Shown here: piece by piece, positions 3,001-4,687 of the stretch
Layout: each line of letters begins with the position of its first letter
How positions within the stretch are numbered: the first letter of the stretch is position 1
Virus record (IMG/VR): IMGVR_UViG_2695420456_000017
From: a virus
Lineage: Duplodnaviria > Heunggongvirae > Uroviricota > Caudoviricetes
Strand: one strand, 5' to 3'
DNA length: 4,687 nt
Position numbers: made by a program

Positions 3001-4687
3001 TCATCACCCGGGAATACTTTGGTGTTAGGCTCAATGAGTACATATTCTCCTGATTTTATTCTGGGCCACATGCTGTCTCCTTTCACACGAAGACCAAAGG
3101 CATCTGGATCATCGCTATAAATTTTGAGCCACCCATCGCGCTCTTCGGTCATCTCGATGGCACCATCAACACCAAGAATTGCCTCACCAACCACGCGCAC
3201 TAACCCTTTTTTTAATTTGCCAACAAATGAAAGAGTATCTTCATCATTCGCTCCATTTAACGAAGTGCCGTGCTGAAGCCAAACAACATCAACGTTTAGA
3301 AATTTCGCAAGCGCATTCATTTTTTCCTGACGCGGTAAAGACTCAGCATTAAACCATTTGCTAACGCCTTTGGACGAAAGAGAAAGGGCACGGGCTATAG
3401 CCATTCCCCTACCATGTTCATCAAGACCAGCTTCTTTACAGGCTTGCGCTAGCCGCTGGGCGAATTCTTTGCGCACTTTTTCATTCTGAACCATGAGTAC
3501 GATACTAAAGCACTTGCAAAAACTTTCAGTTCAACCATAATACGTACTGAAAGTACGAAAAAGGATATTCCTATGCAAAATCTTGATGAGCCGATTAAAG
3601 GTGTCGGCATCCCTGAAGTTGCGAAGGCTTGTGGAGTTAGCGAAAGGGCTGTCTATAAGTGGCTCAAAAACGGCTTCCTCCCTAAGACTGAGTTTTTTGG
3701 GAAAACTAAATACGCATCAAAAATCGAAGAGATTTCTGGTGGCAAATATCAAGCAAGCGAAATGCTTGAAATAAGCAAAAAGAACCTTCTGGCTGCATAA
3801 GTAACACCGCTATTTTCACAATGGGCATTCGTCCTACGTCGCTGACAAAGCGAGTCCCAATATATCTGACCAACTAAGGCCATATGCGTTTCCACGCATA
3901 CCTTTCAACTAGCTATTCACTATTGGAAATCTTAAGAAATGGAACAAACAAGTTACAGCAAACTATCACAGCGAGAAATTGATCGCGCTGAAACTGATTT
4001 ACTCATCAACCTGTCAACGCTTACCCAGCGCGGTCTGGCAAAGATGATTGGCTGTCATGAATCGAAGATAAGCAGAACAGACTGGAGGTTTATAGCTTCG
4101 GTCTTGTGTGCTTTTGGCATGGCATCAGACATCAGTCCGATTAGCAGAGCTTTTAAGTATGCGCTTGATGAAATCACAAAGAAAAAATCCCCGGTGGCCG
4201 CCGGGGACTCTAAGCAAATTGATATGCAATTCTGAGGGAATTACTGGATCAATCCACAGGAGTCATTATGACAAATACAGCAAAAATACTCAACTTCGGC
4301 AGAGGTAACTTTGCCGAACAGGAGCGTAATGTGGCAGATCTCGATGATGGTTACGCCAGACTATCAAATATGCTGCTTGAGGCTTATTCAGGCGCAGATC
4401 TGACCAAGCGACAGTTTAAAGTGCTGCTTGCCATTCTGCGTAAAACCTATGGGTGGAATAAACCAATGGACAGAATCACCGATTCTCAACTTAGCGAGAT
4501 TACAAAGTTACCCGTCAAACGGTGCAATGAAGCCAAGTTAGAACTCGTCAGAATGAATATTATCAAGCAGCAAGGCGGCATGTTTGGACCAAATAAAAAC
4601 ACCTCAGAATGGTGCATCCCTCAAAACGAGGGAGGTTCCCCTAAAATGAGGGACATCCCTCAAAACGAGGGAAAATCCCCTAAAACG

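Follow-up and report, generated by a model that had tools for sequence, protein, structure and literature searches.

The junction between the cII and O genes of this phage raises the question of whether a counterpart of the phage lambda OOP antisense RNA is encoded opposite the 3' end of cII and, if so, what that RNA does. In lambda, OOP is a self-terminating 77-nt RNA that is transcribed from pO and is antisense to cII, and its expression from a plasmid leads to a cII-minus phenotype (PMC3349717). The window, i.e., the whole stretch of 4,687 nucleotides analyzed here, represents the immunity and early-right region of a Shiga-toxin phage belonging to the 933W family, and the element at its cII/O junction is a 933W-type copy of the lambda OOP antisense RNA gene, which is real, ordinary and already described.

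The window is 100% identical to phage JLK-2012 across 98% of its length, and 99.9% identical to 933W, to Stx2 converting phage I and to many Stx1a/Stx2a phages. For the gene map, 933W features were carried over to the window by subtracting 9288 from the record coordinates, and the result was cross-checked with the ORF list. On the minus strand it places the 5' part of N (up to 160), stk, encoding a eukaryote-like Ser/Thr kinase of 348 aa (816–1862), and cI (2787–3494). The plus strand carries cro (3573–3800), cII (3939–4235, with the stop codon at 4233–4235; also in the ORF list) and O, which begins with its start codon at 4268–4270; nutR lies at 3808–3853. Inside O, on the plus strand, lambda-type ori iterons (ATCCCTCAAAACGAGGGA and variants) extend from 4616 to 4687 and past the window end; six are annotated in 933W.

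Three accessory genes lie between cI and N on the minus strand (816–2726), i.e., stk, L0083 (153 aa) and L0084 (113 aa); a RuvC-like resolvase and a DUF3024 protein are among the names that the JLK-2012 RefSeq record gives for the matched region as a whole. Positions 1–101, inside N on the minus strand, are unmatched in 933W, JLK-2012 and most relatives, where matches begin at 102, yet they do match Stx2a_F422 (AP012531), which suggests a mosaic breakpoint within N. A G+C-rich hairpin at 629–650 is terminator-like on both strands and coincides with the 933W-annotated tM (627–648), downstream of the cI-stk operon. Inside cII, a terminator-like hairpin on the plus strand at 4079–4104 (9 pairs, 8-nt loop, weak T tail) is probably due to chance.

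Promoter, predicted antisense RNA and terminator at the cII/O junction

A promoter scan of the minus strand places a -35 hexamer TTGAGT, the same as in lambda pO, at 4293–4288, and scan and sequence together give an extended -10 element, TGTCATAAT (4265–4273), composed of CATAAT at 4270–4265 and a TG at 4273–4272. The spacer between the hexamers measures 17 nt and ends with TGT. Read on the plus strand, the -10 hexamer is ATTATG and thus overlaps the O start codon at 4268–4270; on the minus strand it is followed by GACTCCT and then by a G at 4257. The preliminary description had proposed a near-consensus minus-strand promoter over the O start. Its position (TTGAGT-17-CATAAT, on the ATG) is upheld, but "near-consensus" is generous for hexamers with 9/12 consensus matches plus the TG. 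Sites with at least 9/12 matches occur 11 times in the window, compared with 11.4 expected from shuffles, so that pO, on its hexamers alone, does not stand out from chance sites. Since such hexamer matches occur at the chance rate, the promoter call rests not on them but on identity with lambda pO, which extends over 72 of the 73 nt upstream of the predicted +1. Tested as a lambda-homologous leftward promoter with its -10 on the O start codon, the element displays both properties. In lambda, the OOP-dependent inhibition phenotype was lost once ATTAT in the -10 hexamer had been replaced (plasmid p27RpO-; PMC3349717).

The start and end of the RNA were assigned by alignment with lambda, for which base -19 of pO is 38694 and the first oop base is 38675 (Hayes et al., PMC3349717). 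G4257 aligns to 38675 and is taken as the 5' end; the 3' end would lie in or just after the U tract, and its position at ~4181 follows from taking lambda's length of 77 nt. The predicted OOP RNA thus spans 4257–4181 on the minus strand, with a predicted 5' stem-loop formed by nt 1–44 (4257–4214). Folding of an 81-nt RNA gives -31.2 kcal/mol (z = -4.5), and 0 of 200 shuffles are equally stable. The 3' part is complementary to the 3'-terminal 55 nt of cII, stop codon included (4181–4235, plus strand), an overlap equal to that reported for lambda (PMC3349717). The complementarity also covers the spacer and ends 2 nt short of the O Shine-Dalgarno sequence GGAG (4259–4262). With the RNA at 4257–4181 on the minus strand, and cII (3939–4235) and O (from 4268) on the plus strand, the leftward antisense placement at the cII/O junction fits the lambdoid module. 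An RNA of ~80 nt running from 4258 to 4178 had been proposed previously; that it is antisense to the cII 3' end is retained, and its ends move by 1–3 nt to 4257 and ~4181.

The start site is spanned by a LexA-box-like motif, CTGT-N8-CCAG (4244–4259, minus strand), which matches once in the window with 0.10 matches expected by chance. A LexA site within oop-pO of lambda is reported in a passage of PMC5869508 that cites Lewis 1994, and we infer that the motif may be this site.

The terminator tO lies at 4211–4182 on the minus strand, about 50 nt past the start site and within the final cII codons K-K-S-P-V-A-A-G-D. It reads UCCCCGG (4207–4201), CGGCCA (loop, 4200–4195), CCGGGGA (4194–4188) and U6 (4187–4182), then CUUU, and A-U and G-U pairs lengthen the core stem to 4211/4184. 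In the consensus scan it ranks first among the terminator-like sites in the window (4211–4184; 11 pairs, 6 of them G-C, 6-nt loop, T-rich tail), sites which are enriched overall (9 found, 3.4 expected). The strong minus-strand intrinsic terminator that had been proposed inside the cII 3' end is thus confirmed. On the plus strand, a T tract after the hairpin is absent and the scan shows no site there, so that tO acts leftward only; on the same two grounds the hairpin was rejected as a rightward terminator of the pR transcript. Self-termination is hence assigned to an intrinsic terminator that is present inside cII on the minus strand only.

Base pairing in tO was followed over 11 different sequences from the lambda and 933W classes. 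Standard pairs occupy every one of the 121 cells of the helix (11 pairs, 11 sequences); both partners have changed in two pairs (U-A/C-G and C-G/G-C), and only one partner in three. In controls with the 3' partners slid by 1–3 columns, 37–69% of the cells are paired and double changes are lacking altogether. Both compensatory pairs separate the same two classes, and the sequences are closely related and mosaic; the two pairs therefore probably arose in one evolutionary event. The base changes in tO also alter the C-terminal residues of CII (RPAATE in lambda, SPVAAG in the window). This part of CII is reportedly dispensable for activity but needed for OOP regulation (PMC3349717); part of the conservation of the hairpin could nevertheless stem from the protein, the hairpin being in coding sequence.

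A scan against Rfam 15 (E ≤ 1) gave no match within 4178–4293. This says nothing against OOP membership, as the model may be missing or may not reach the sequence, and it leaves the assignment without independent confirmation by a covariance model. The only Rfam hit in the window, RpsF_leader at 4362–4427 on the minus strand inside O, is attributed to chance (21.7 bits with a gathering threshold of 37, E = 0.32). The prophage sRNA svsR (PMC12803456) was dropped as a candidate relative of OOP, as the paper mentions no oop, cII or antisense.

Homology to lambda OOP and variation among related phages

In an alignment with lambda 38559–38749, the minus strand of the window is collinear with lambda from promoter through terminator. 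The RNA body is homologous to lambda OOP, with 56/77 identical positions and no gaps, made up of 18/22 in the part from the cII-O spacer and 38/55 where the RNA overlaps cII. Just beyond tO, i.e., upstream in cII, the sequence is unalignable to lambda (27/81). As the adjoining cII sequence does not align, the homology is specific to an island formed by the pO-oop-tO module and the O gene, not the whole of cII. The proposal of a lambda-OOP-like antisense RNA at the cII 3' end is thus borne out by the identity in pO (72/73) and in the body (56/77), the aligned +1, the 55-nt overlap and the compensatory pairs.

The start region coincides with a 33-bp box conserved among lambdoid phages (4243–4275), as defined in a figure legend of PMC3349717 (Fig. 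S1/S2), which contains the -10, the Shine-Dalgarno sequence and ATG of O, and the +1 and 5' end of OOP. A scan of IMG/VR with the published box yielded at least 120 loci. The bases of the -10 and the RNA 5' end belonged to the search pattern, and their conservation in this set is circular. A second set was therefore assembled through CII protein similarity only, independent of the DNA box, and comprised 76 loci with enough downstream sequence. The box lies exactly 7 nt after the cII stop in 75 of these 76 loci, the remaining one having 1 mismatch, and the terminator is kept in 76/76; the replication-gene starts that follow the module in these loci are of at least four kinds. Since the CII relatives are close (94–100% identical), the CII-derived survey shows robustness across mosaics rather than deep conservation.

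The RNA bodies adjoining the box in the at least 120 loci fall into three classes: lambda-like (77 nt), 933W/HK022-like (77 nt), to which the window belongs, and P22-like (63–67 nt). Body sequence and terminator hairpin of the P22-like class are unrelated to those of the other two. For each of the three classes, folding predicts a hairpin at the 5' end and, downstream of it, a terminator with its U tract (z from -3.9 to -4.9). The register of the 5' hairpin differs among the classes. OOP nt 1–14, near-invariant in sequence (4257–4244, minus strand; GUKGAUWGAUCCAG), can pair with CUGGAUU in the lambda class or with AUCAAUUUG in the 933W class, and because they can pair with either partner the hairpin is kept in differing registers. 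Among the box-derived and CII-derived loci, body classes and at least four types of -35 and replication-gene start occur in nearly all combinations, which makes the box a mosaic junction.

In two other body classes the shared box does drive a leftward RNA. Besides lambda OOP, a P22 oop RNA of 63 nt has been recovered by small-RNA-seq (PMC13397905), identical to the P22-class sequence from nt 4 on, and OOP has been seen at the same position in the BTP1 prophage transcriptome (PMC7067206). Direct RNA evidence in the searchable literature is confined to lambda, P22 and BTP1; for the 933W-class allele, neither a transcript nor a mapped 5' end nor RNase III results were found there. From the observed elements, homology, fold and conservation we infer that the window allele produces the RNA and that this RNA acts on cII.

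OOP-like sequences have been stated for the cII-O regions of Stx phages (PMC5488031; PMC12197685), a table entry in the latter reads "lambda and Stx phages, 77 nt, cis", and 933W (AF125520) is among the phages in a comparison of oop (PMC3349717); the prior literature found on the 933W class consists of such sequence-based statements. An "oop" feature was sought in the records of lambda (NC_001416, J02459), 933W and Stx2 phage I, and none is in the feature tables returned. The module matches 1,687 of 5,426 complete E. coli genomes in RefSeq, at up to 5 places per genome. No RNA feature is annotated under the matches listed, which carry only "CII family transcriptional regulator" and "replication protein". 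The value of the element as a discovery is small, OOP being a textbook antisense RNA with a published presence in Stx phages, 933W included. It has some practical value in that annotation of oop would help the interpretation of small-RNA-seq in EHEC and the modeling of the lysis-lysogeny decision, which governs Shiga toxin release.

Probable function of the predicted antisense RNA and alternative explanations

The window element is very probably the 933W/HK022-class allele of the lambdoid pO-oop-tO module, acting as in lambda. Host sigma-70 RNA polymerase would recognize the extended -10 promoter overlapping the O start codon and initiate at G4257. Moving leftward, it would copy the cII-O spacer and then the final 55 nt of cII before stopping at the intrinsic terminator (4207–4182), which would yield an RNA of ~77 nt with two hairpins. 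Because it is encoded opposite its target, this RNA would pair perfectly with the cII 3' end on the pR transcript. RNase III would then cut the OOP-cII duplex and the cII message would decay, as shown for lambda, where the mechanism is documented in passages of PMC3349717, PMC5869508 and PMC5488031 (Krinke & Wulff 1987, 1990, 1991). CII would fall, and the decision would tilt to lytic growth. The proposed function, RNase III-dependent decay of cII favoring lysis, is transferred from lambda. Furthermore, the LexA-box-like motif over +1 may couple OOP synthesis to the SOS response.

An antisense RNA made at this junction might instead have its main role in replication control, together with the adjacent O gene and iterons and through the inhibition phenotype that silences theta replication, with pO transcription or OOP itself as the actor and the effect on cII secondary. 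The O gene of the window is of the lambda type, with ori iterons starting at 4616, and in lambda the inhibition phenotype depends on the iterons as well as on oop transcription from pO (PMC3349717). However, the module precedes at least four unrelated replication-gene starts and tracks the cII 3' end, not the replication module, and hybrids with P22 replication genes escape inhibition and are still cII-inactivated by OOP (PMC3349717). As the main role of the RNA, replication control is therefore considered improbable; as an additional function it is possible, since the window has the lambda-type O gene and iterons, and it is not mutually exclusive with the role in cII decay.

Even less credence is given to the view that conservation at the junction has other causes and that the antisense RNA is an incidental by-product. 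The box, which holds the Shine-Dalgarno sequence and ATG of O and lies where body classes and replication modules shuffle, could be kept as the ribosome-binding site and start of O and as a linker through which immunity and replication modules recombine. Likewise, the hairpin could be kept within its coding sequence for the CII C-terminus, or as a 3' stabilizer of processed cII mRNA. Yet CII reportedly does not need its last 17 residues for activity (PMC3349717), the residues encoded there differ between classes (RPAATE and SPVAAG) with base pairing retained, and the entirely different hairpin of the P22 class still has its U tract on the minus strand only. In addition, detection of the RNA is documented for lambda, P22 and BTP1, and a cII-minus phenotype follows from its overexpression (PMC3349717, PMC13397905, PMC7067206). 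These observations make an incidental by-product highly improbable.

Apart from cII decay in cis, OOP might also act in trans when lambdoid phages reside together in a cell or superinfect it, with its alleles divided into specificity classes; this reading is suggested by sequence divergence, and we regard it as unlikely. The lambda, 933W/HK022 and P22 classes differ at about 1/3 of the target positions (17/55 between lambda and the window), and therefore a prophage OOP would knock down cII only in phages of the same class. Trans action of lambda OOP on imm21, with 5 mismatches, has been shown (PMC3349717). If true, class-bound trans action would add class-specific "anti-lysogeny" cross-talk to the mosaic junction, where the invariant 5' 14 nt would be able to close the hairpin with either body class; importance of such cross-talk was rated unlikely.

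Comparison with the oop genes of other phages

The oop gene of lambda (pO-oop-tO, 38675–38599, leftward) has the same position and orientation at the cII/O junction as that of the window. Lambda OOP likewise is a 77-nt RNA with two hairpins, its tO lies inside the dispensable C-terminal codons of CII, its -10 is on the O ATG, and the CTGT-N8-CCAG motif over +1 is shared. Compared with lambda OOP, 21 of the 77 bases differ in the window, 17 of them within the 55-nt target overlap, which argues that good pairing should be limited to the cII allele of the same class. The 5' hairpins differ in register (UGGAUUGAU/AUCAAUUUG in the window, GAUCCAG/CUGGAUU in lambda), two tO pairs are swapped between the two phages, and the remaining cII DNA is unrelated (27/81).

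The oop RNAs of P22 and BTP1 are antisense to c1, the cII equivalent, and share with the window the 5' box, the start region (GUGGAUUGAUCCAGU...) and the antisense position, but differ in their shorter body (63–67 nt) with unrelated sequence and terminator, in the -35, and in the downstream replication genes. The oop genes of HK022 and other Stx phages (Stx2 II, H-19B, etc.; Hayes et al. 2012) belong to the same body class as the window. Some of these variants have one U-G for C-G in the terminator stem, plus loop changes, and many copies precede a non-lambda replication module and have a CCTGGT-like -35, whereas the window has TTGAGT.
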